Notes under the pieces: model-generated
What the model was told of the DNA's origin: nothing
The model's database searches: none
The model's input: the letters and a program-made list of their open reading frames with translations, nothing else
In this document: positions 3,859-63,759 of the stretch, piece by piece
How the letters are laid out: every line of letters begins with the position of its first letter
Numbering within the stretch: the first letter of the stretch is position 1
Sequence record: OR757453.1
DNA: 64,000 bases
Source of the DNA: Escherichia phage BYEP01
Reading direction: 5' to 3' (one strand)
Made by a program: the position numbers and the translations under genes

Positions 3859-4776
3859 ATGGATTTAGAAATGATGCTGGATGAAGATTACAAAGAAGGA
3901 ATCTGCTTAATTGACTTTAGTCAAATTGCGCTTTCAACTGCTCTGGTAAACTTCCCAGATAAAGAAAAAATTAATTTATCAATGGTTCGTCATTTGATAT
4001 TGAACTCAATTAAGTTTAATGTCAAAAAAGCAAAAACTCTTGGATACACTAAGATTGTATTGTGTATTGATAACGCGAAATCTGGATACTGGCGTCGTGA
4101 TTTCGCTTATTATTATAAGAAAAACCGTGGAAAAGCACGAGAAGAATCTACTTGGGACTGGGAAGGTTATTTTGAATCCAGTCATAAAGTTATAGATGAA
4201 TTGAAAGCTTATATGCCATACATTGTTATGGATATTGATAAGTATGAAGCAGATGACCATATTGCCGTGCTTGTTAAAAAGTTCTCCTTAGAAGGACATA
4301 AAATTTTAATCATTTCATCGGATGGTGACTTTACTCAACTTCACAAATATCCAAATGTTAAGCAATGGTCACCGATGCACAAGAAATGGGTTAAAATTAA
4401 AAGCGGTTCTGCTGAAATTGACTGTATGACTAAAATCCTTAAAGGCGACAAAAAGGATAACGTTGCTTCAGTTAAAGTACGATCTGACTTTTGGTTTACC
4501 AGAGTTGAAGGTGAACGAACTCCTTCAATGAAAACCTCTATTGTTGAAGCTATTGCTAATGACCGCGAGCAAGCTAAGGTGCTTCTCACTGAATCTGAAT
4601 ATAATCGATATAAAGAAAATTTAGTTCTAATTGATTTTGATTATATTCCTGATAATATTGCTTCAAACATTGTGAATTACTATAATTCATATAAATTACC
4701 ACCGCGTGGCAAAATTTATTCATATTTTGTAAAAGCGGGTCTTTCTAAATTAACTAATAGCATTAACGAATTTTGA
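3859..4776 (+). CDS. rnh: RNase H / 5'-3' exonuclease (305 aa)
   Basis: ORF-track 3844..4776 begins at TTG; internal ATG at 3859 gives MDLEMMLDEDYKEGICLIDFSQ..., recognised as T4 RNase H. Confidence 0.95.
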   Translation: MDLEMMLDEDYKEGICLIDFSQIALSTALVNFPDKEKINLSMVRHLILNSIKFNVKKAKTLGYTKIVLCIDNAKSGYWRRDFAYYYKKNRGKAREESTWDWEGYFESSHKVIDELKAYMPYIVMDIDKYEADDHIAVLVKKFSLEGHKILIISSDGDFTQLHKYPNVKQWSPMHKKWVKIKSGSAEIDCMTKILKGDKKDNVASVKVRSDFWFTRVEGERTPSMKTSIVEAIANDREQAKVLLTESEYNRYKENLVLIDFDYIPDNIASNIVNYYNSYKLPPRGKIYSYFVKAGLSKLTNSINEF

Positions 4777-4784
4777 GGTGAATA

Positions 4785-5054
4785 ATGGCTAAAAAAGAAA
4801 TGGTTGAATTTGATGAAGCTATCCACGGCGAAGATTTAGCTAAATTTATTAAAGAAGCATCTGACCATAAACTGAAAATTTCTGGTTATAATGAATTGAT
4901 TAAAGATATTCGAATTCGTGCCAAAGATGAACTTGGTGTTGATGGCAAGATGTTTAATCGTTTGTTAGCTTTGTATCATAAAGATAACCGTGATGTGTTT
5001 GAAGCTGAAACTGAAGAGGTAGTTGAACTTTATGACACAGTTTTCTCTAAATGA
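4785..5054 (+). CDS. dsbA: dsDNA-binding protein DsbA (89 aa)
   Basis: MAKKEMVEFDEAIHGEDLAKFIKEASDHKLK... recognised as T4 DsbA; RBS GAGGTG upstream. Confidence 0.9.
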   Translation: MAKKEMVEFDEAIHGEDLAKFIKEASDHKLKISGYNELIKDIRIRAKDELGVDGKMFNRLLALYHKDNRDVFEAETEEVVELYDTVFSK

Positions 5055-5370
5055 TATTCGTCCGGTCGATGAGACCGGTCTTTCAGAAAAAGAACTTTCA
5101 ATTAAGAAAGAAAAGGATGAAATAGCAAAACTTCTTGACCGCCAAGAAAATGGATTTATTATTGAAAAAATGGTAGAAGAGTTTGGAATGAGTTATCTTG
5201 AAGCTACAACAGCATTCTTAGAAGAAAATTCTATTCCTGAAACTCAATTTGCTAAATTTATTCCTTCAGGTATAATTGAAAAAATTCAGTCAGAAGCTAT
5301 TGACGAAAATCTTTTACGTCCTTCTGTTGTTCGTTGTGAAAAAACTAATACATTAGATTTTCTACTATGA
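5032..5370 (+). CDS. 33: late transcription accessory protein gp33 (112 aa)
   Basis: Track ORF 5023..5370 starts at TTG; ATG at 5032 gives MTQFSLNDIRPVDETGLSEKEL..., recognised as T4 gp33; overlaps dsbA 3' end. Confidence 0.9.
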   Translation: MTQFSLNDIRPVDETGLSEKELSIKKEKDEIAKLLDRQENGFIIEKMVEEFGMSYLEATTAFLEENSIPETQFAKFIPSGIIEKIQSEAIDENLLRPSVVRCEKTNTLDFLL

Positions 5371-6020
5371 TTAAACTCCGCATGCCTGCTGGTGGTGAAA
5401 GATACATTGATGGTAAATCAGTTTATAAATTATACTTAATGATAAAACAACATATGAATGGAAAGTATGATGTAATTAAGTATAATTGGTGCATGCGGGT
5501 GTCTGATGCCGCTTATCAAAAGCGAAGGGATAAGTATTTTTTCCAGAAGTTATCAGAAAAATATAAATTAAAGGAACTTGCTTTAATCTTTATAAGCAAT
5601 CTTGTTGCTAACCAAGATGCTTGGATTGGTGACATCTCTGACGCTGATGCACTTGTGTTTTATCGTGAATATATCGGACGCTTAAAGCAAATTAAATTTA
5701 AGTTTGAAGAAGATATTCGCAACATTTATTATTTTAGTAAAAAAGTTGAAGTTTCTGCTTTTAAAGAAATTTTTGAATATAATCCAAAAGTTCAATCAAG
5801 TTATATTTTTAAACTACTTCAATCGAATATAATTTCGTTTGAGACGTTTATCTTGCTTGATTCGTTTTTAAATATAATTGATAAACATGATGAACAGACT
5901 GATAATTTAGTCTGGAATAATTATTCTATAAAGTTAAAAGCTTATAGAAAAATTTTAAATATTGATTCACAGAAAGCTAAAAGTGTTTTTATTGAAACTG
6001 TGAAATCTTGTAAGTACTAA
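5367..6020 (+). CDS. 59: helicase loader gp59 (217 aa)
   Basis: MIKLRMPAGGERYIDGKSVYKLYLMIKQHMNGKYDVIKYNW... recognised as T4 gp59; ATGA overlap with gene 33 stop. Confidence 0.95.
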   Translation: MIKLRMPAGGERYIDGKSVYKLYLMIKQHMNGKYDVIKYNWCMRVSDAAYQKRRDKYFFQKLSEKYKLKELALIFISNLVANQDAWIGDISDADALVFYREYIGRLKQIKFKFEEDIRNIYYFSKKVEVSAFKEIFEYNPKVQSSYIFKLLQSNIISFETFILLDSFLNIIDKHDEQTDNLVWNNYSIKLKAYRKILNIDSQKAKSVFIETVKSCKY

Positions 6021-6045
6021 TTGCTTATTATAAATAGATTATAAT
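6021..6045 (+). promoter_or_regulatory. gene 32 promoter cluster: MotA-box-like TTGCTTA, late TATAAATA (6029-6036), -10 TATAAT (6040-6045)
   Basis: Motifs read directly about 75-100 nt upstream of gene 32 ATG. Confidence 0.45.
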
Positions 6046-6119
6046 TATCTCACTGACCAGCTATGAGGTCATACATCGTCATAGCACCAACTGTTAATTA
6101 AATTAAAAAGGAAATAAAA

Positions 6120-7265
6120 ATGTTTAAACGTAAATCTACTGCTGAACTCGCTGCACAAATGGCTAAACTGGCTGGAAATAAAGGTGGTTTTTCTTCTGAA
6201 GATAAAGGCGAGTGGAAACTGAAACTCGATAATGCGGGTAACGGTCAAGCAGTAATTCGTTTTCTTCCGTCTAAAAATGATGAACAAGCACCATTCGCAC
6301 TTCTTGTAAATCACGGTTTCAAGAAAAATGGTAAATGGTATATTGAAACATGCTCATCTACCTACGGTGATTACGATTCTTGCCCAGTATGTCAGTACAT
6401 CAGTAAAAATGATTTGTATAACACTGACAATAAAGAGTACGGTCTTGTTAAACGTAAAACTTCTTACTGGGCTAACATTCTTGTAGTAAAAGACCCAGCT
6501 GCTCCAGAAAATGAAGGTAAAGTATTTAAATACCGTTTCGGTAAGAAAATCTGGGATAAAATCAATGCAATGATTGCAGTTGATGTTGAAATGGGTGAAA
6601 CTCCGGTTGATGTAACTTGTCCGTGGGAAGGTGCTAACTTTGTACTGAAAGTTAAACAGGTTTCTGGATTTAGTAACTACGATGAATCTAAATTCCTGAA
6701 TCAATCTGCGATTCCAAACATTGACGATAAATCTTTCCAGAAAGAACTGTTCGAACAAATGGTTGACCTTTCTGAAATGACTTCTAAAGATAAATTCAAA
6801 TCATTTGAAGAACTGAGCACTAAATTCGGTCAAGTCATGGGAACTGCTGTGATGGGCGGTGCCGCTGCAACTGCTGCTAAGAAAGCTGATAAAGTTGCTG
6901 ATGATTTGGATGCATTCAATGTTGATGACTTCAAAACAAAAACTGAAGATGATTTTATGAGCTCAAGCTCTGGCAGTTCATCTAGTGCTGATGACACGGA
7001 CCTGGCAATACTGCTGATAGTTAAAGAGGAAAATAATATGGCTAAAGTTGATATTGACATCGTTGATTTTGAATATATTGAAGAAATTATTCGTAATCGT
7101 TATCCTGAACTTAGTATCACAAGCGTGCAAGATTCTAAGTTTTGGAGTATTCAAATCGTTATTGAAGGTCCTCTTGAAGACCTCACCCGTTTTATGGCTA
7201 ATGAATATTGTGATGGCATGGATTCTGAAGACGCAGAATTTTACATGGGACTGATTGAACAATAA
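6120..7265 (+). CDS. 32: ssDNA-binding protein gp32; frame as sequenced has no stop at the expected end and runs into the next ORF (381 codons)
   Basis: [23 protein letters not shown]...SSADDTDL recognised as T4 gp32; expected acidic tail DDLLNDL-stop replaced by [11 protein letters not shown] then in-frame ATG at 7038. Confidence 0.85.
7038..7265 (+). CDS. hypothetical protein (75 aa, frd.3-position ORF) with own RBS, in frame with gene 32
   Basis: AAAGAGG (7023-7029) then ATG 7038; [25 protein letters not shown]... Confidence 0.5.
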
Positions 7266-17303: not shown

Positions 17304-17358
17304 GTTTACAAGTCCCTCATGTTGTGTTACAGTAGTCTTACTGACATAACATGAGGAC
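17304..17358 (+). promoter_or_regulatory. about 55-bp promoter-like plus hairpin element upstream of alc (copy 1 of 2)
   Basis: GTTTAC 17304-17309; arms GTCCCTCATGTT (17312-17323) / AACATGAGGAC (17348-17358); right arm contains the alc SD GAGGA; near-identical copy at 30896-30950. Confidence 0.5.
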
Positions 17359-23582: not shown

Positions 23583-23587
23583 GTTAA

Positions 23588-23611
23588 GGACTCCCGAAGG
23601 AGTCCTTTTTT
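23588..23611 (+). terminator. rho-independent terminator (GGACTCC-cgaa-GGAGTCC then TTTTTT)
   Basis: Perfect 7-bp stem, GNRA-like loop, T6 tract. Confidence 0.8.
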
Positions 23612-24468: not shown

Positions 24469-24484
24469 AGGGGCTTCGGCCCCT
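24469..24484 (+). other. intercistronic GC hairpin AGGGGC-ttcg-GCCCCT (no U-tract)
   Basis: Perfect 6-bp stem with UUCG loop between two ORFs. Confidence 0.4.
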
Positions 24485-25638: not shown

Positions 25639-26522
25639 AGCCTACTATTTTAACTGATATTGATGGAGTATGTTTAAGCTGGCAATCAGGCCTTCCTTAT
25701 TTTGCTCAGAAATATAATCTTCCGTTAGAACATATTTTAAAAATGATCCAAGATGAGAAATTTATTTCTCCAGGTAAACTCTTTAATTGTGATGAAGAAC
25801 TTGGCGTCAAGTTAATTGAAAAATACAATCGTTCAGATTTTATTCGTTACTTGTCTCCGTATAAAGATGCCCTGTGTGTAATTAACAAATTAAAAGAAGA
25901 TTATAATTTTGTAGCTGTTACAGCATTGGGTGATTCTATTGACGCTCTGTTGAATCGTCAATTTAATTTGAATGCTCTTTTTCCTGGTGCCTTCTCAGAA
26001 GTAATGATGTGTGGCCATGATTCTTCAAAAGAAGAGTTGTTTAAAAAGGCAAAAGAGAAATATAACGTAATTTGTTATATTGACGATCTCGCTCACCACT
26101 GTGACCACGCGAGTGAAATATTAAATGTTCCGGTTTATTGGATGGCTCGAGGAGAGCGTGACAATATTCCAAAAACTGCGCAGCGAGTTTATACATGGAA
26201 TGATGTAGAAAATAAGCTTTTTTCACCAAAGGAAAATAAAGAAAGTTTTGATAGTGAAAAAGCTATAAAAGATGTAATTGAGAAGATGGTTAAAAACGAT
26301 TCTTTTCGTTGGAACACTACCTGGAGAACTCCTGGATTTAATCCGTATAATCCATATTATACACATCCATATAATCCATATTATACACATCCATATAATC
26401 CATATTATACACACCCGTATCATATGAATCCATTCCATACGTGGAGTTATACCAAGCCTGGCGATGCAGGGTATTTTAATAGATTTACTAGTGGTGATAA
26501 TATTTTCCAAGGAGCATTCTAA
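25635..26522 (+). CDS. HAD-like phosphatase/nucleotidase-family protein with C-terminal NPYYTHPY repeats (295 aa; 30.2-position)
   Basis: N-terminal ILTDIDGV motif; C-terminal ...GFNPYNPYYTHPYNPYYTHPYNPYYTHPYHMNPF... Confidence 0.55.
   Translation: MKPTILTDIDGVCLSWQSGLPYFAQKYNLPLEHILKMIQDEKFISPGKLFNCDEELGVKLIEKYNRSDFIRYLSPYKDALCVINKLKEDYNFVAVTALGDSIDALLNRQFNLNALFPGAFSEVMMCGHDSSKEELFKKAKEKYNVICYIDDLAHHCDHASEILNVPVYWMARGERDNIPKTAQRVYTWNDVENKLFSPKENKESFDSEKAIKDVIEKMVKNDSFRWNTTWRTPGFNPYNPYYTHPYNPYYTHPYNPYYTHPYHMNPFHTWSYTKPGDAGYFNRFTSGDNIFQGAF
26344..26415 (+). repeat. 24-bp perfect tandem repeat x3 (CCATATAATCCATATTATACACAT) inside the 30.2-position CDS
   Basis: Three head-to-tail copies read directly; in-frame. 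Confidence 0.85.
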
Positions 26523-26788
26523 TGTTTGTCGTTCACACTATTTATGAAAATGAAGGTAATACTACACGTGATTACGGTCACGTAAATCAATTTTTTAGAT
26601 GCAATCCAGAATTCCGAGCTCAAAAAGACGAACGAATTTTTAAAAAATGTGTAGAGCAAGGTTTCATTTACGTCAAGCACTGGATGCAAGGAAATAAAGT
26701 TAGAACTACATATCATAAGTCTTTGCCTGAGCTTAATGATGAATTGATTTATAATAGAGCTGTAAACCAAACTCTGAAGGATGAATAA
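26522..26788 (+). CDS. hypothetical protein (88 aa; 30.1-position)
   Basis: Track ORF; TAATG overlaps at both ends. Confidence 0.5.
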   Translation: MFVVHTIYENEGNTTRDYGHVNQFFRCNPEFRAQKDERIFKKCVEQGFIYVKHWMQGNKVRTTYHKSLPELNDELIYNRAVNQTLKDE

Positions 26789-28251
26789 TGATTCTTAAAA
26801 TTCTGAATGAAATAGCATCTATTGGTTCAACTAAGCAGAAGCAAGCAATTCTTGAAAAGAATAAAGATAATGAATTGCTTAAACGAGTATATCGTCTGAC
26901 TTATTCTCGTGGGTTGCAGTATTATATCAAGAAATGGCCTAAACCTGGTATTGCTACCCAGAGTTTTGGAATGCTGACCATTATCGATATGCTTGACTTC
27001 ATTGAATTCACGTTAGCTACTCGGAAATTGACTGGAAATGCTGCAATTGAGGAATTGACTGGATATATCACCGATGGTAAAAAGGATGATGTTGAAGTTT
27101 TGCGTCGAGTTATGATGCGAGACCTTGAATGCGGTGCTTCAGTATCTATTGCAAACAAAGTTTGGCCAGGTTTAATTCCTGAACAACCTCAAATGCTGGC
27201 AAGTTCTTATGATGAAAAAGGCATTAGTAAGAATATCAAGTTTCCAGCTTTTGCACAGTTAAAAGCAGATGGAGCTCGGTGTTTTGCTGAAGTCCGAGGT
27301 GATGAATTAGATGATGTTCGTCTTTTATCACGAGCTGGTAATGAATATCTAGGATTAGATCTTCTTAAGGAAGAATTAATCAAAATGACTGCTGAAGCCC
27401 GCCAGATTCATCCAGAAGGTGTGTTAATTGATGGCGAATTGGTATACCATGAGCAAGTTAAAAAGGAACCAGAAGGACTAGATTTTCTTTTTGATGCTTA
27501 TCCTGAAATTAGTAAAGCTAAAGAATTCGCCGAAGTAGCGGAATCTCGTACTACTTCTAATGGAATCGCCAATAAATCCTTAAAAGGAACCATTTCTGAA
27601 AAAGAAGCTCAATGTATGAAGTTTCAGGTCTGGGATTATGTCCCGTTGGTAGAAATATACGGTCTTCCGGCGTTTCGTTTAAAATATGATGTACGTTTTT
27701 CTAAACTAGAACAAATGACATCAGGATATGATAAAGTAATTTTAATTGAAAACCAGGTAGTAAATAACCTAGATGAAGCTAAGGTAATTTATAAAAAGTA
27801 TATTGACCAAGGTCTTGAAGGTATTATTCTCAAAAATATCGATGGATTATGGGAAAATGCTCGTTCAAAAAATCTCTATAAATTTAAAGAAGTAATTGAT
27901 GTTGATTTAAAAATTGTAGGAATTTATCCTCACCGTAAAGACCCTACTAAAGCAGGTGGATTTATTCTTGAGTCAGAGTGTGGAAAAATTAAGGTAAATG
28001 CTGGTTCAGGCTTAAAAGATAAAGCCGGTGTAAAATCGCATGAACTTGACCGTACTCGCATTATGGAAAACCAAAATTATTATATTGGAAAAATTCTAGA
28101 GTGCGAATGCAATGGTTGGTTAAAATCTGATGGCCGCACTGATTACGTTAAATTATTTCTTCCGATTGCGATTCGTTTACGTGAAGATAAAACTAAAGCT
28201 AATACGTTCGAAGATGTATTTGGCGATTTTCATGAGGTAACTGGTCTATGA
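26788..28251 (+). CDS. 30: ATP-dependent DNA ligase gp30 (487 aa)
   Basis: MILKILNEIASIGSTKQKQAILEKNKDNELLKRVYRLTYSRGLQYYIKKW...AQLKADGARCFAEV (KxDG adenylation motif), recognised as T4 DNA ligase. Confidence 0.96.
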   Translation: MILKILNEIASIGSTKQKQAILEKNKDNELLKRVYRLTYSRGLQYYIKKWPKPGIATQSFGMLTIIDMLDFIEFTLATRKLTGNAAIEELTGYITDGKKDDVEVLRRVMMRDLECGASVSIANKVWPGLIPEQPQMLASSYDEKGISKNIKFPAFAQLKADGARCFAEVRGDELDDVRLLSRAGNEYLGLDLLKEELIKMTAEARQIHPEGVLIDGELVYHEQVKKEPEGLDFLFDAYPEISKAKEFAEVAESRTTSNGIANKSLKGTISEKEAQCMKFQVWDYVPLVEIYGLPAFRLKYDVRFSKLEQMTSGYDKVILIENQVVNNLDEAKVIYKKYIDQGLEGIILKNIDGLWENARSKNLYKFKEVIDVDLKIVGIYPHRKDPTKAGGFILESECGKIKVNAGSGLKDKAGVKSHELDRTRIMENQNYYIGKILECECNGWLKSDGRTDYVKLFLPIAIRLREDKTKANTFEDVFGDFHEVTGL

Positions 28252-28436
28252 AAGCTTACTTAGAAACAATTGTCGTGGCTCAAAAAGAAGGTGGAGATGT
28301 TTCTACTTCTGTATCACAAGTCATTCTCGAATTTGTAGATGCATACGCTTATAATAAATTTACAGAAACATTTGATGCTTATGAAAAAGGTCCAAAGTTT
28401 GAAATATATCGTACTCTCTTACCTATAGATTATTAA
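28248..28436 (+). CDS. hypothetical protein (62 aa)
   Basis: ATGA overlap with gene 30 stop; followed by terminator. Confidence 0.5.
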   Translation: MKAYLETIVVAQKEGGDVSTSVSQVILEFVDAYAYNKFTETFDAYEKGPKFEIYRTLLPIDY

Positions 28437-28458
28437 AGGCCTTCGGGCCTTTAATTTT
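28435..28458 (+). terminator. rho-independent terminator (AAAGGCC-ttcg-GGCCTTT then AATTTTAT)
   Basis: 7-bp stem with UUCG loop and U-rich tail. Confidence 0.7.
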
Positions 28459-28465: not shown

Positions 28466-28488
28466 GAATAAACACTAGAGAGGATATG

Positions 28489-30537
28489 ATGGAACTAATT
28501 ACAGAATTATTTGACGAAGATACTACTCTTCCGATTACAAACTTAAATCCAAAGAAGAAAATACCACAAATTTTTTCAGTTCATGTTGATGACGCAATTG
28601 AACAACCAGGCTTTCGTTTATGTACCTATACATCTGGAGGTGATACTAATCGTGATTTAAAGATGGGCGATAAAATGATGCACATTGTTCCTTTTACATT
28701 AACTGCTAAAGGTTCAATTGCTAAATTGAAAGGTCTTGGTCCAAGCCCAATTAATTATATCAATTCAGTTTTTACTGTTGCAATGCAAACAATGCGTCAG
28801 TATAAAATTGATGCCTGCATGCTTCGTATTCTTAAGTCTAAAACCGCTGGTCAAGCTCGACAAATTCAAGTTATTGCTGATAGACTTATCCGTAGTCGTT
28901 CAGGTGGCAGATACGTCCTTCTTAAGGAACTCTGGGATTATGATAAAAAGTATGCATATATTCTTATACATCGCAAAAATGTATCACTAGAAGACATTCC
29001 AGGAGTTCCGGAAATTAGTACCGAGCTCTTTACTAAAGTTGAATCGAAGGTCGGTGATGTTTATATCAATAAAGATACTGGAGCTCAAGTAACTAAAAAT
29101 GAGGCAATTGCAGCATCTATTGCGCAAGAAAACGATAAACGTTCTGACCAAGCTGTAATCGTTAAAGTTAAAATTTCCCGTAGAGCAATTGCACAAAGTC
29201 AGTCATTGGAATCTTCTAGATTTGAAACACCGATGTTTCAAAAATTTGAGGCTTCAGCGGCAGAATTAAATAAACCAGCGGACGCGCCTTTAATTTCTGA
29301 TTCTAATGAATTAACGGTAATTTCTACTTCAGGATTTGCACTAGAGAATGCTCTTAATAGTGTTACAGCTGGGATGGCATTCAGAGAAGCTTCTATAATT
29401 CCTGAAGATAAAGAATCTGATGTTAATGCAGAAATAAAAAATAAAGCTTTAGAAAGATTACGAAAAGAATCTATTACTTCAATAAAAACTTTAGAAACTA
29501 TTGCTTCTATCGTCGATGATACTTTAGAAAAATATAAAGGTGCTTGGTTTGAAAGAAATATTAACAGACATTCGCATTTAAACCAAGATGCTGCAAATGA
29601 GTTAGTACAAAATTCTTGGAATGCAATAAAAACAAAGATTATTCGAAGAGAATTACGTGGATATGCTCTTACCGCTGGATGGTCATTACATCCTATAGTC
29701 GAAAATAAAGATTCATCTAAATACACACCAGCGCAAAAACGCGGAATTCGTGAATATGTAGGTTCAGGATATGTAGACATAAATAATGCTCTTTTGGGAT
29801 TATATAATCCAGATGAGCGTACAAGTATTTTAACAGCACCTGAAATAGAACAAGCCATTGATAATTTAGATTCAGCCTTTAAAAATGGTGAACGATTACC
29901 AAAAGGTATTACTTTGTATCGTTCACAACGAATGTTACCTTCAATATATGAAGCAATGGTAAAAAATCGAGTTTTTTATTTTAGAAACTTTGTGTCAACA
30001 TCATTATATCCAAATATTTTTGGTACTTGGATGACTGATTCATCTATAGGTGTTTTACCAGACGAAAAGCGTCTAAGTGTTTCTATTGATAAAACTGATG
30101 AAGGGCTTGTTAATTCTAGCGATAATTTAGTCGGAATTGGATGGGTTATTACTGGGGCTGATAAGGTCAATGTTGTTTTACCCGGTGGAAGTTTAGCGCC
30201 TTCAAATGAAATGGAAGTCATTTTGCCACGTGGATTAATGGTCAAAGTTAATAAAATAACCGATGCATCTTACAACGATGGAACAGTTAGAACTAACAAC
30301 AAGCTTATTCAAGCTGAAGTTATGACTACAGAAGAACTCACCGAATCGGTAATTTATGACGGTGACCGTTTAATGGAAACTGGTGAATTGGTTACAATGA
30401 CAGGTGATATAGAAGATAGAGTTGACTTTGCATCATTTGTTTCATCAAATGTTAAACAGAAAGTAGAATCATCTCTTGGAATTATTGCGTCTTGCATAGA
30501 TATTGCAAACATGCCTTACAAGTTCGTTCAAGGATAA
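28489..30537 (+). CDS. alt: Alt ADP-ribosyltransferase (682 aa)
   Basis: MELITELFDEDTTLPITNLNPKKKIPQIFSVHVDDAIEQPGFRLCTYTSGGDTNRDLKMGDKMMHIVPF... recognised as T4 Alt. Confidence 0.95.
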   Translation: MELITELFDEDTTLPITNLNPKKKIPQIFSVHVDDAIEQPGFRLCTYTSGGDTNRDLKMGDKMMHIVPFTLTAKGSIAKLKGLGPSPINYINSVFTVAMQTMRQYKIDACMLRILKSKTAGQARQIQVIADRLIRSRSGGRYVLLKELWDYDKKYAYILIHRKNVSLEDIPGVPEISTELFTKVESKVGDVYINKDTGAQVTKNEAIAASIAQENDKRSDQAVIVKVKISRRAIAQSQSLESSRFETPMFQKFEASAAELNKPADAPLISDSNELTVISTSGFALENALNSVTAGMAFREASIIPEDKESDVNAEIKNKALERLRKESITSIKTLETIASIVDDTLEKYKGAWFERNINRHSHLNQDAANELVQNSWNAIKTKIIRRELRGYALTAGWSLHPIVENKDSSKYTPAQKRGIREYVGSGYVDINNALLGLYNPDERTSILTAPEIEQAIDNLDSAFKNGERLPKGITLYRSQRMLPSIYEAMVKNRVFYFRNFVSTSLYPNIFGTWMTDSSIGVLPDEKRLSVSIDKTDEGLVNSSDNLVGIGWVITGADKVNVVLPGGSLAPSNEMEVILPRGLMVKVNKITDASYNDGTVRTNNKLIQAEVMTTEELTESVIYDGDRLMETGELVTMTGDIEDRVDFASFVSSNVKQKVESSLGIIASCIDIANMPYKFVQG

Positions 30538-30540
30538 ATC

Positions 30541-30926
30541 ATGGAACTTATTACATAATTATTTGACGGCGCTTCGGCGCCGGTTGTTAACTTAAATCCT
30601 AAGCATAAAATACCACAAATTTTTGCTATTCAAGCCGGCGAAGAAAGCGTGCTTCCTGGATTTAGATTTTGTACATACACCTCTGGCGGTGATACAGATA
30701 AAACGTTAAACCAGGCGACAAAATGATGCATATCGTAATGATAGGTGTTAATGAGAAACTATCATTAGTTAAGCTTAAAAACTTGGGTGGAAATCCAATT
30801 GGTGTCATTAATGCTGTTTTTGATACTGCTCTTCAAACAATGAAACAGTATAAAATCGACGCATGCCTATTACGCGTACTAAAAAGTTCAAAATGTAGTT
30901 TACAAGTCCCTCGTGTTGTGTTATAG
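30541..30926 (+). pseudogene. decayed alt paralogue (N-terminal about 125 codons; premature TAA at codon 6 and a frameshift)
   Basis: MELIT-stop-LFDGASAPVVNLNPKHKIPQIFAIQAGEESVLPGFRFCTYTSGGDTDKTLNQATK then frameshift then MMHIVMIGVNEKLSLVKLKNLGGNPIGVINAVFDTALQTMKQYKIDACLLRVLKS; aligns to Alt residues about 1-125; contains GC hairpin GGCGC-ttcg-GCGCC. Confidence 0.75.
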
Positions 30927-30950
30927 TAGTCTTACTGACATAACATGAGG
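30896..30950 (+). promoter_or_regulatory. about 55-bp promoter-like plus hairpin element (copy 2 of 2; partner at 17304-17358)
   Basis: GTTTACAAGTCCCTCGTGTTGTGTTATAGTAGTCTTACTGACATAACATGAGGA; 52/54 identical to copy 1; right arm contains SD of the downstream ORF. Confidence 0.5.
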
Positions 30951-30958
30951 AACACAAA

Positions 30959-31249
30959 ATGAAATCTTCTTTACGCTTTTTAGGTCAAGAACTTGTAGTT
31001 GAAGGCGTTATTCCTGCTGATAATGCTTTTAATGAAGCAGTTTATGATGAATTTATCAAAATTTTCGGAACAGATAAAAAGTTTGGAATTTTTCCTTCTG
31101 AAAATTTTTCAAAGCCAGAACAGACTGAAAGTATTTTTCAGGGTGTAGTAACAGGTAAATTTGAGTCAGAAGCTCCGGTAAAAATTGAAGTTTATATTGA
31201 AGACAGTTTAGTTGCTTCAGTTGCTGCTTTCATTTCATTCCGTAAATAA
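30959..31249 (+). CDS. hypothetical protein (96 aa; downstream of alt)
   Basis: TGAGGA RBS then ATG; MKSSLRFLGQELVVEGVIPADNAFNEAVYDEF... Confidence 0.6.
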   Translation: MKSSLRFLGQELVVEGVIPADNAFNEAVYDEFIKIFGTDKKFGIFPSENFSKPEQTESIFQGVVTGKFESEAPVKIEVYIEDSLVASVAAFISFRK

Positions 31250-31255
31250 AAATAT

Positions 31256-31273
31256 GGGGACCGAAAGGTCCCC
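31256..31273. terminator. bidirectional terminator hairpin (GGGGACC-gaaa-GGTCCCC) between convergent genes
   Basis: Perfect 7-bp stem with GAAA loop; U-rich flanks on both strands. Confidence 0.7.
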
Positions 31274-31321
31274 GTTGTTATATTGCTCCTAATATTTTAC
31301 TCTGCGAATTGACAATCCCTG

Positions 31322-32245
31322 TCATAGTATACTAATATTTGAAATGCTTCCTGAGGTTCCTCCTAGTCTACTAAGTCGTGAAAGCGAATTAGATAGTCCA
31401 GTAACACCTCCACTATTTCCGAGAACGCTTTGAATACCATTTATAGCAGCAGATTCAAGCCATTCAAGCGCAGCTTGCCTATCAACTGCTCCAGCCTGCA
31501 TCACTCTGTACGCAAAAGTAACATCAAATGTAGTTATTTGGTTATCTCCATCATATGATAGCTCAGGAGCGCTCACTGATATTGGAATGCATCCGGTGAA
31601 CATCACCGCAGTATGAGGCAATCCATTGCGAGAATGAAGATTAACCTGAATATCTGCCTCGACATCTTGTGGCAAAGCACGTAATCCAGTTACTGGGTCT
31701 TGAACGGAGTTAACCCAGTCTTGCATTGCACGATAGTTACAAGCTTCTGAATCCATTCTAAATGAAATAACCAAAGGGTCTAATTCTCTCCCAGTTATAC
31801 GAATATTAGGAGAATTATAGTTCCAGTCAGTTTCATAGGATAATCTATTCTCTGGCATTTTTACAGAATATATCATCAATCCAGATGAGTTATATGCCAT
31901 GTTAAAGAAGTCAATTAAATATGTACCAACCGTAAATGAGCCTAATAAACTTTGAACTGTGCGTTGACTCATGGCACCAATAAGATATTTACTGACTCCT
32001 GATTTTCTTATTAGTTTTTGTGTGCCAGCTGTAATTAGCGTGGTAATTCCCTGATTAATATCACCTTGAGTTAATCCTAACCAATTTGAATTTAGGCCCA
32101 AGTTATTATAAGAAAAGTTGCTAATTGAACTTATCAACGAAGAGCTTTTAGTTGATGGAGTTGTCGCAAAAACGCAGCTAAACATATTATTACGTTGGAA
32201 ATCTGCGTTTATTGCTTGATTATTAAATTCCTCTAAAGAATACAT
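31322..32245 (-). CDS. 54: baseplate tail tube initiator gp54
   Basis: MYSLEEFNNQAINADFQRNNMFSCVFATTPSTKSS... recognised as T4 gp54 (307 aa here). Confidence 0.9.
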   Translation of the reverse strand: MYSLEEFNNQAINADFQRNNMFSCVFATTPSTKSSSLISSISNFSYNNLGLNSNWLGLTQGDINQGITTLITAGTQKLIRKSGVSKYLIGAMSQRTVQSLLGSFTVGTYLIDFFNMAYNSSGLMIYSVKMPENRLSYETDWNYNSPNIRITGRELDPLVISFRMDSEACNYRAMQDWVNSVQDPVTGLRALPQDVEADIQVNLHSRNGLPHTAVMFTGCIPISVSAPELSYDGDNQITTFDVTFAYRVMQAGAVDRQAALEWLESAAINGIQSVLGNSGGVTGLSNSLSRLSRLGGTSGSISNISIL

Positions 32246-43605: not shown

Positions 43606-43610
43606 TCATA

Positions 43611-43636
43611 AGGGGCTTCGGCCCCTTTCTTCATTT
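43611..43636 (+). terminator. rho-independent terminator (AGGGGC-ttcg-GCCCCT then TTCTTCATTTT)
   Basis: Perfect 6-bp stem, UUCG loop, U-rich tail after hoc. Confidence 0.7.
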
Positions 43637-45913: not shown

Positions 45914-45929
45914 CCATAAAAACAACTAA

Positions 45930-45947
45930 AGGGACCCGAAGGTCCCT
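45930..45947 (-). terminator. hairpin AGGGACC-cgaa-GGTCCCT just downstream of gene 23 (terminator/attenuator)
   Basis: Perfect 7-bp stem with GNRA loop between gene 23 stop and gene 24 promoter. Confidence 0.6.
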
Positions 45948-45961
45948 TAAATCGTCAAAGA

Positions 45962-62179: not shown

Positions 62180-63759
62180 TCTTTTACCTTAATTATGTAG
62201 TTTAAAGAAATGTTCCATGGGCGTGTTTCATTTCCAATTAATTCAGGACGATTTAATGTGTATTTGGAATTTCGTTGTGATTCTGGGTCAATTTCATATC
62301 CGTCATTGGTGAAGTATGAACGGTTATCCCAGTCAAGTCCTTTACGTGTACCAACAAAATTTGATCTACGAGTATTACCGAATGCCCCGGCATCATCCTG
62401 CTCACCAAATCCGCCAGCGTGTTTATGATAAGACATCTGCTGTTTTTGTACTTCACCAACATATCCACCGGTACAGCCTACACCTAATCTAGGCTTACCA
62501 AATTGGTCATTACCGTTAACATTTGGATTTGTTAAGTGAGAGCCACGACCGGAGCCACGAACAAAAAGACCACGCATATCAGGTAATCCAGGATTTGATG
62601 AGCTTCCGCCGTATCTTGTTCCAATTCTAGAAGCATATAATGGACAATCTGATGCTGAAACAGTTCCGCCATGGCAGAAGCGCCAAGCATCACTAGGAAG
62701 GCTATCAGCCGCCCACATCATAATAGCTCCGACAGGAATAGTTCTATCTATTTCATTCTGCGTTACGACACGCTTACCCTGAATATAACCACCGGTCATG
62801 TTAACTGTTCCGGTAATATTTGCTCCGCCTGAAGCTATTGTGAGCGTATTATTAATGCGAAGTGTTCCATTAATCGTTTGACCACCTCTTTGATGGATAA
62901 CGTCAGCATTCCAAGCTAGTGCTGATGAAGCATCACCTCCACTCTGTGAGCCGGCGGTTGTAGTTAATTTAACTACGCCTCTCATTGACGTTGTAGAACC
63001 ACGACCATTAAGAGTTGCGCCAGTAACCGCAACAGAAGCATTATTTGAGTTAACTTCTGATTGCGTTCCTAATTTAATTACGCCTTTATATTCTTCAGTA
63101 GCAGTAGAATTCATGAACGTATAAGGAGAAATTGCATAGCCTTCTCTTAAAGTTCCTTGACGAACTTGAGCTACTGTCGCTAATTGAACAACACCTTGGG
63201 CCGATTCGGTAGCTGTGGATTCAGAAGGAGCGATTTGCGCAATTAGTTTAATAGCTAACTGCTGCGTTTTTAATGGAGTCATTGCAGTAGTATCATCTGC
63301 GCCAGCTAATGCTTGCGGTAGAGATGAAATTTTAATAACTCCATTCTTTGATTCAGTTGAAACTCGTGTTTCAAAGGCATTATTAAGGGCAACAGTAAAT
63401 TTAGCAGGAGTTATAGAAGATTCATTATTAACTCCAGCAATTGCTTCATCATTGGTTGAATATCTTGTTAATCCGTAAACAGTTTCAGTTGCGTTTGGAT
63501 AAGATAATCTTGTTGCCAACGTTGCTGGTGTAACTGCTTTGGTATTATCAGTTCCATCGATAACTTCCTGTTCAGTGGCAAGAAATAAAATTCCTTTTGT
63601 TGTTGATGATGCATCAGGAACTCCATTTACACCAGCAGGAGAAATGGCTGCTATAGCAGCCTGAACATCAGTAATCTCTGCTGGAAAATTTGTGCCAGTT
63701 GGATCAAATTTTACATAGCGAGATTCATTAGAAACGTGTTGGTATGTATTATTACTCAT
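62176..63759 (-). CDS. 12: short tail fiber protein gp12 (527 aa)
   Basis: [88 protein letters not shown]... recognised as T4 gp12. Confidence 0.96.

Follow-up and report, generated by a model that had tools for sequence, protein, structure and literature searches.

The 358-nt stretch that directly follows alt in the DNA studied here is very probably a pseudogene without coding function, the stump of a once full-length second alt-like ADP-ribosyltransferase gene, as judged from comparison with related genomes. The window, by which we mean the whole 64,000-nucleotide stretch that was analyzed, comes from a T4-like phage of the genus Tequatrovirus. The feature is already known: it is the annotated alt.-1/alt.-2 locus of T4, here one step further decayed. 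What the comparison adds is a mechanism, exact coordinates, and a picture of the locus across the phage population; the significance for the window itself is small. The coordinates of the features discussed in the following are collected in Table 1.

Table 1. Features of the alt to alt.-3 region, in window coordinates unless another locus is named.
Feature	Position	Strand	Remarks
DNA ligase (gp30)	26788-28251		
alt.1, 62-aa ORF	28248-28436		between ligase gene and alt
alt, intact Alt ADP-ribosyltransferase gene	28486-30537	+	683 aa from first ATG
AAGGA ribosome-binding site of the former second alt gene	30530-30534	+	inside last alt codons
Probable remnant of second alt-like gene, whole	30541-30898	+	358 nt; blastn versus RB14, junction read
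T4 alt.-1 equivalent	30541-30726	+	closed at codon 6 by TAA; phrog_23015
Nonsense codon TAA	30556-30558	+	GAA (Glu6) in T4 and all intact copies
C(UUCG)G hairpin CGGCGC-TTCG-GCGCCG	30567-30582	+	6-bp all-GC stem, 30 nt past alt stop
A4 run, one-base deletion site	30700-30703	+	A5 in intact genes
T4 alt.-2 equivalent, 67 codons	30723-30926	+	starts MMHIVMIGV; phrog_15247, E 8.8e-50
Deletion junction, single copy of 9-bp CTAAAAAGT	30879-30887	+	compared with RB14, T6, T2
Last 11 nt of former gene, TCAAAATGTAG	30888-30898	+	TAG stop at 30896-30898
Early-type promoter and stem-loop	30898-30951	+	TTTACA, 17 nt, TATAGT; scan 10/12 matches
alt.-3 (DUF5498), next intact gene	30959-31249	+	Pfam PF17602, E 1.4e-64; T4 annotation
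Intact second alt-like gene	RB14 locus 4501-6558		same in T6 and T2 loci

A megablast search with positions 30400-31300 returned 502 phage records, all Tequatrovirus-like, the best of them at 99.4% identity and T4 isolates at 98.0%. Over positions 28491-31330, the window and T4 are 97.5% identical at the nucleotide level (2,840 nt aligned, 2 gaps) and collinear, and the feature lies between alt and alt.-3 in both; the orientation of the window is opposite to that of the T4 reference record. Beyond alt.-3, gp54 and gp48 are encoded on the minus strand. The product of the intact alt gene matches the Pfam family ADPrib_exo_Tox (E 8.6e-35), and a search of the PDB with Alt gave only distant CdtA-type ART domains, the N-terminal part being without a match. 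The T4 gene is annotated from the second ATG, which is position 28489 in the window.

The alt gene itself is a mosaic. The window allele, of 683 aa, is of the T4 type, whereas alt of T2, T6, and RB14 encodes 697 aa; over the 5′ 900 nt their identity is 95%, over the 3′ part it is about 79% with gaps, and no blastn alignment to the T2, T6, and RB14 loci was obtained for the ~420 nt in the center (29296-29715). In F26 and Lutter, a 2,094-nt alt allele is paired with the remnant. Elsewhere in the neighborhood, the alt.1 ORF matches Pfam PF24647, “Phage blade protein” (E 2.4e-29), and is followed by a UUCG hairpin with a 10-bp stem that is annotated as a terminator in several relatives. At 26341-26423, which is several hundred bases 5′ of the DNA ligase gene, there are three overlapping copies of a 35-nt unit, ATCCATATAATCCATATTATACACATCCATATAAT, with 24-nt spacing and 89-100% identity. 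Diverged direct repeats of 32-42 nt (64-76% identical) occur at 1714-2358 and again at 63094-63306, and these may be repeated coding modules.

The ribosome-binding site, the ATG at 30541, and the TAA at codon 6 of the remnant, all of which the original prediction had pointed out, are read directly in the sequence, and the AAGGA context is identical in RB14, T2, and T6, which carry the intact gene. When the Alt protein of the window was used as a tblastn query against the whole 64-kb window, the region gave two HSPs in different frames with a combined E of 2.6e-34, the first aligning Alt residues 1-63 with positions 30538-30723 (56% identity) and the second aligning residues 57-118 with positions 30702-30887 (61% identity). 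The proposed paralogy to the N terminus of Alt is thus confirmed for approximately the first 118 codons of alt, and the alignment with alt that had been suggested as a check bears out the homology at both the protein and the DNA level, where it runs from the ATG onward. In terms of the former gene, the remnant consists of the first 348 nt minus one base, plus the last 11 nt including the ancestral TAG.

In terms of the T4 annotation, the same stretch holds the equivalents of alt.-1 and alt.-2, which overlap by an ATGA at 30723-30726. The alt.-2 ORF starts at the ancestral Met62, preceded only by a weak AGG, keeps the ancestral frame up to the deletion junction, and then continues out of frame past the old stop codon, so that its 3′ end runs into the alt.-3 promoter; the predicted peptide includes MMHIVMIGVNEK. 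The remnant covers positions 2-120 of the 674 positions of phrog_802 (the Alt family), and the PHROGs collection contains one family each for alt.-1 and alt.-2, both of unknown function and both mapping to the first 120 Alt-family positions. Neither the repaired 128-aa form nor the 67-aa ORF matched any Pfam family, the Alt-like ADP-ribosyltransferase family with its ART catalytic domain (PF03496) included, and the reading frame that an Alt-like enzyme would need is broken by the TAA at codon 6 and by the frameshift at the A4 run. A known RNA family was also considered as a reading of the remnant and rejected; an Rfam scan of 30300-31400 with E up to 1 yielded only two sub-threshold chance matches, both outside the feature.

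The nature of the remnant becomes apparent from RB14, T6, and T2. In these phages, an intact gene of 2,058 nt (685 aa) begins 3 nt past the stop codon of alt, and alt.-3 comes next. The encoded protein is 41% identical to the Alt of the window; the two are colinear over their whole length, starting at Met1 and ending with the C-terminal residues, and the N-terminal part is more similar. The protein matches Pfam ADPrib_exo_Tox, and in the alignment its arginine (YR), S-T-S, and E-x-E motifs of the ART domain coincide with those of Alt. Positions 30541-30887 of the window are 95-96% identical to the first 348 nt of this gene, and between the window and the phages with the intact gene there is no difference in the last 11 nt or in the promoter that follows. 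In a blastn search with positions 30541-30897, most relatives matched query positions 1-347 only, inside a gene annotated as an Alt-like ADP-ribosyltransferase, and tblastn with the 685-aa protein found about 402 records at an amino acid identity of at least 90%, with full-length matches among those listed. The original prediction had described a tandem alt paralogue caught in decay and had proposed looking for intact paralogues in related genomes; their presence at this position in T2, T6, and RB14 therefore proves that inference. The feature thus has what defines a unitary pseudogene in the first place, namely that close relatives carry the orthologue in intact form at this position. We know of no experimental work on the intact second Alt-like ADP-ribosyltransferase. 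The literature found mentions it only in passing as a paralogue, with no function given. Two paralogous Alt-like proteins have been noted in a Tequatrovirus (PMC13600099).

How the gene was shortened can be read from the junction. Intact genes contain two copies of CTAAAAAGT, 1,699 bp apart, the first located in codons 114-116 and the second 11 nt ahead of the stop codon, whereas the window contains one copy. In blastn, window positions 30541-30887 correspond to 4501-4848 of the RB14 locus and window positions 30879-31330 correspond to 6539-6990, the two alignments overlapping by 9 nt in the window. Because CTAAAAAGT is found twice in intact genes and once in the window, and because the last 11 nt have been retained, the stump equals the full gene minus 1,699 bp; the deleted segment contains the whole catalytic domain. 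A query spanning the junction was covered to at least 80% in 90 of 499 records, and among the listed records without the junction the match begins at the repeat. All 18 other remnants that were read carry the same junction, with one A fewer in the junction A run in the case of F25. Hence, the stump is found in about one-fifth of Tequatrovirus records and the intact gene in about four-fifths. Two haplotype groups can be distinguished among the remnants, each resembling different intact alleles, which might indicate that the deletion happened repeatedly rather than once, but recombination would explain the pattern equally well.

These observations bear on the view, also taken in the original prediction, that the sequence started out as a partial duplicate. 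In its strict form, only the first ~350 nt of alt were copied, and the long genes of T2 and T6 are the product of a later insertion. Existing descriptions favor this view: a note in the T4 RefSeq record traces alt.-1 and alt.-2 to an old duplication of the beginning of alt that acquired a stop codon and a new start, the T6 record speaks of an “apparent insertion in alt.-2,” and Nolan et al. 2006 (PMC1524935) give “T4 ORFs alt.-1 alt.-2” as an example of adjacent genes that are paralogous duplications. We nevertheless consider a genuinely partial duplication highly improbable. The long form is colinear with Alt throughout, including the ART domain and the C-terminal end, which an insertion could achieve only by chance, and the remnant retains the last 11 nt and the stop codon of the long gene. 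Moreover, the long form has two copies of the 9-bp repeat and the short form has one, which is the hallmark of a deletion, and the long form is both the majority state and under strong purifying selection. The sequence is better described as a full-length gene that was shortened by a 1,699-bp deletion between 9-bp repeats.

The right-hand boundary of the remnant deserves a comment, since the remnant had been described as truncated at a repeated promoter and hairpin element. That element is real, but the breakpoint is not located there; it lies in the junction, 11 nt upstream. The old TAG stop codon abuts the −35 hexamer of the alt.-3 promoter, and RB14, T2, and T6 have this promoter cassette in unaltered form behind the intact gene, meaning that it bounds the pseudogene and is no part of it. 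A second copy of the cassette (54 nt, 96% identical) is found at 17304-17357. Both copies consist of GTTTACA, 17 nt, and TATAGT or TACAGT, with the −10 region and the leader forming a long stem-loop; the predicted folding energies are −23 and −26 kcal/mol with z-scores of −4.4 and −5.0, the first value of each pair belonging to the cassette at 30898-30951. The stem-loop pairs with the downstream Shine-Dalgarno sequence GAGGA, which at 30898-30951 is that of alt.-3. The cassette at 17304-17357 precedes a 168-aa ORF that lies 3′ of a gene 63-like RNA ligase and is probably alc. Promoter-early/stem-loop (PeSL) cassettes flanking lost modules have been described (Arbiol et al. 2010; Comeau et al. 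2014; PMC4122927), and a PeSL-mediated deletion was considered as an explanation for the junction. It was rejected: such an event has both breakpoints in cassettes, and here the left breakpoint is in coding sequence without a cassette, the right one precedes the promoter element by 11 nt, and the two ends are joined at a microhomology of 9 bp.

In addition to the deletion, the remnant carries two small lesions, whose distribution was surveyed in the window, in 18 further remnants taken from phage records or IMG/VR contigs, and in five intact copies. The scan of IMG/VR gave nine loci, four of which were informative; the other five are alt genes of other phages that do not have the hairpin, one of them near-identical to T4-type alt and four more distant. 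The first lesion, the loss of one A from an A5 run, is shared by about 12 remnants including T4 and the window. It had been predicted as a single frameshift near 30715; the frameshift is there, but its actual site is the A run at 30700-30703. Through this loss, ...AAA ATG ATG... becomes ...A AAA TGA, with the TGA located at 30724-30726, and this single-base event therefore suffices to produce an alt.-1 stop codon that overlaps the Met62 “start” of alt.-2; no separate events are needed. The second lesion is the nonsense codon at position 6. A 40-mer around this TAA is 100% identical in 44 phage records, and ACG-C40 is identical to the window over all 357 nt compared.

All combinations of the two lesions occur. 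FL23 has neither and retains an intact 128-aa ORF; five phages (AV119, FL12, EC128, PTE-Eco15, and fPS-2) have the TAA only; six remnants (T4, e11/2, Pu-Krd-SF5, F25, and two IMG/VR contigs) have the frameshift only; and the window and about six relatives, among them ACG-C40, F26, Lutter, HY03, and T-01, have both. Recombination or recurrent slippage must therefore have been at work, which blurs the order of the two point lesions. In HY03, a 7-nt duplication has additionally truncated alt.-2, and F25 shows an additional 1-nt deletion. With both lesions present, translation of the first ORF of the window cannot go past residue five. A link between alt.-1 and alt.-2 by programmed frameshifting or transcriptional slippage was considered and rejected: GAT AAA ACG is not a heptamer of the X XXY YYZ type, an A4 run is too short for slippage, and in the window codon 6 is already a stop codon.

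Since one of the lesions sits in a homopolymer run, the stop and the frameshift could in principle be read errors in an intact gene, and the original prediction had named corrected reads that restore a continuous ORF as the result that would overturn it. There is next to no chance of such a sequencing or assembly artefact. The lesions are common to dozens of independent genomes, with the TAA found in 44 records, the junction in 90, and the A4 run in about 12 independently sequenced remnants including T4. Even if both point lesions were repaired, the product would still have only 128 aa and no catalytic domain.

Selective constraint was analyzed for the first 348 nt in the ancestral frame, with the frameshift repaired. 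The pN/pS ratio is 0.009 among intact sequences, of which only five were included, and 0.116 among remnants. Variants private to remnants comprise 11 nonsynonymous or nonsense and nine synonymous changes, as compared with zero and nine for variants private to intact genes (Fisher p = 0.005); some of the “private” synonymous variants are probably inherited polymorphisms, and the test has limited power, but its direction is clear. In agreement with these counts, the first 116 aa are at least 99% identical in 380 records, whereas remnants among the matches listed show 92-97%. Going by these substitution patterns, the intact gene is under strong purifying selection, and the constraint is relaxed in the remnants. 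Relaxed constraint together with multiple independent disabling lesions is what one would look for in a unitary pseudogene, the power of this part of the evidence being modest.

The substitution data also bear on the idea that the stump encodes functional small proteins, for example Alt.-2 or a 128-aa N-terminal domain that would modulate packaging or assembly by competing with Alt for the latter's position in the capsid. In its favor, 17 of the 18 other remnants that were read have an open alt.-2 frame, and the ATGA shared by the two ORFs is reminiscent of translational coupling. In addition, Alt-like proteins of T4-like phages begin with a conserved module of ~115 aa, and alt.-1 and alt.-2 have PHROGs families of their own. 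We consider a protein-level function improbable nonetheless. In the window, alt.-1 stops at codon 6, so that any coupling is lost and alt.-2 is left with its weak AGG, and in HY03 alt.-2 itself is truncated. Nonsynonymous changes build up in the remnants; there are fewer private ones in the alt.-2 part than in the alt.-1 part (3 versus 8), counts that are too small to show constraint. Furthermore, no stand-alone N-terminal family was seen outside the remnant lineage among the matches listed, the more distant of which are annotated Alt-like or ADP-ribosyltransferase genes or else stretches that are unannotated or labeled “hypothetical.”

The lack of a detected protein in T4 points in the same direction. 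Small proteins are easily missed by shotgun proteomics, and non-detection of Alt.-1 and Alt.-2 in T4 is therefore weak evidence. In a time-resolved transcriptome and proteome of T4, the alt.-1 and alt.-2 RNAs were classed as “middle” and no protein was detected (PMC9697503, Table S2), whereas alt.-3 was early at both the RNA and the protein level and alt was late (PMC9697503). This pattern would fit a trailer that is transcribed but untranslated, or unstably translated.

The GC-rich hairpin near the start of the remnant had been taken as standing in place of coding sequence. This is not the case, because in the intact genes of T2, T6, and RB14 the hairpin is in-frame coding sequence for GASAP (D-G-A-S-A-P-V). 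Other GC-rich C(UUCG)G hairpins on the plus strand of the window are located at 24469-24484, 28432-28455, and 43610-43627, all of them 0 to 11 nt after a stop codon, although the stem of the one at 28432 begins within the last codons of its ORF; these three look like gene-end RNA structures. Minus-strand GC-rich UUCG hairpins occur at 23586-23607 and 45929-45948.

The position of these three hairpins lends some appeal to the notion that the stump is a retained 3′ untranslated region in which the C(UUCG)G hairpin stabilizes or terminates the alt mRNA, a role that would be compatible with a protein pseudogene. The hairpin is invariant in 23 aligned sequences, and the centroid fold consists of the hairpin alone, at −12.8 kcal/mol. 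If true, such a role would explain why the first 350 nt are kept in every deletion-type genome seen. It appears rather unlikely, however. In phages with the intact gene, the hairpin lies inside the coding region, so that it cannot be a strong terminator there. The tail, GTTGTTAACT, contains no U-tract by the rule of the terminator scan, which did not flag the site, the 70-nt fold with its z-score of only −0.95 is not unusual for the local composition, and no Rfam family matched. Invariance of the hairpin means little when the overall identity of the sequences is 95-99%. The retention of the 5′ 348 nt in all 90 deletion-type records may still reflect a role at the RNA level or in spacing.

Taken together, the data are best accounted for by a pseudogene that arose in steps. 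The ancestral Tequatrovirus would have carried alt and, 3 nt further downstream, a diverged 685-aa paralogue. In the lineage of T4 and the window, 1,699 bp between the two copies of CTAAAAAGT would then have been lost, and with them the whole catalytic domain, likely by slippage or illegitimate recombination. The A5-to-A4 frameshift and the G-to-T change that created the stop at codon 6 would have followed later. What is left probably continues to be transcribed, forming a 3′ trailer on transcripts from alt and from further upstream, and yields no useful protein.

For T4, this means that the note on alt.-1 and alt.-2 would be better restated as a paralogue of the whole gene that first lost 1,699 bp by deletion between repeats and then a single base. 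T4 represents the minority state, and about four-fifths of sequenced Tequatroviruses keep a strongly conserved, predicted second Alt-type enzyme, which work on injected ADP-ribosyltransferases that is confined to T4 will miss. Annotation pipelines should mark alt.-1 and alt.-2 (PHROGs 23015 and 15247) as fragments of a pseudogene rather than as hypothetical proteins.

Several known systems can be compared with the locus. Tandem alt paralogues, some of them truncated, have been described as RB49ORF183c, 44RRORF188c, and 187c (PMC1524935); these belong to other genera and presumably reflect independent events. The two promoter/stem-loop cassettes of the window resemble the PeSL cassettes of T4-type phages. 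Closer at hand are the intact orthologues in RB14, RB32 (where the gene is called “alt.-2”), T2 (T2_202), and T6 (AXN58232), which share the ribosome-binding site, the start codon, and the hairpin codons with the window but differ in encoding a 685-aa protein with an ADPrib_exo_Tox domain that is under purifying selection, the window lacking 1,699 bp of this gene. Among the deletion-type relatives, fPS-2, AV119, EC128, FL12, and PTE-Eco15 have the same junction and the same TAA at codon 6; unlike the window, they have kept the A5 run and show no frameshift. One of these, gene g192c of Yersinia phage fPS-2, is already labeled in its record as [quoted passage not shown] The closest counterpart is the T4 pair alt.-1 (T4p199; 186 nt, 61 codons) and alt.-2 (T4p198; 204 nt), an orthologous locus with the same junction, the same A4 frameshift, the same ATGA overlap, and ~98% nucleotide identity. 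Substitutions are few, N53D being among those of the window and N17T being T4's own, and the main difference is the extra GAA-to-TAA change at codon 6, by which alt.-1 is closed in the window.
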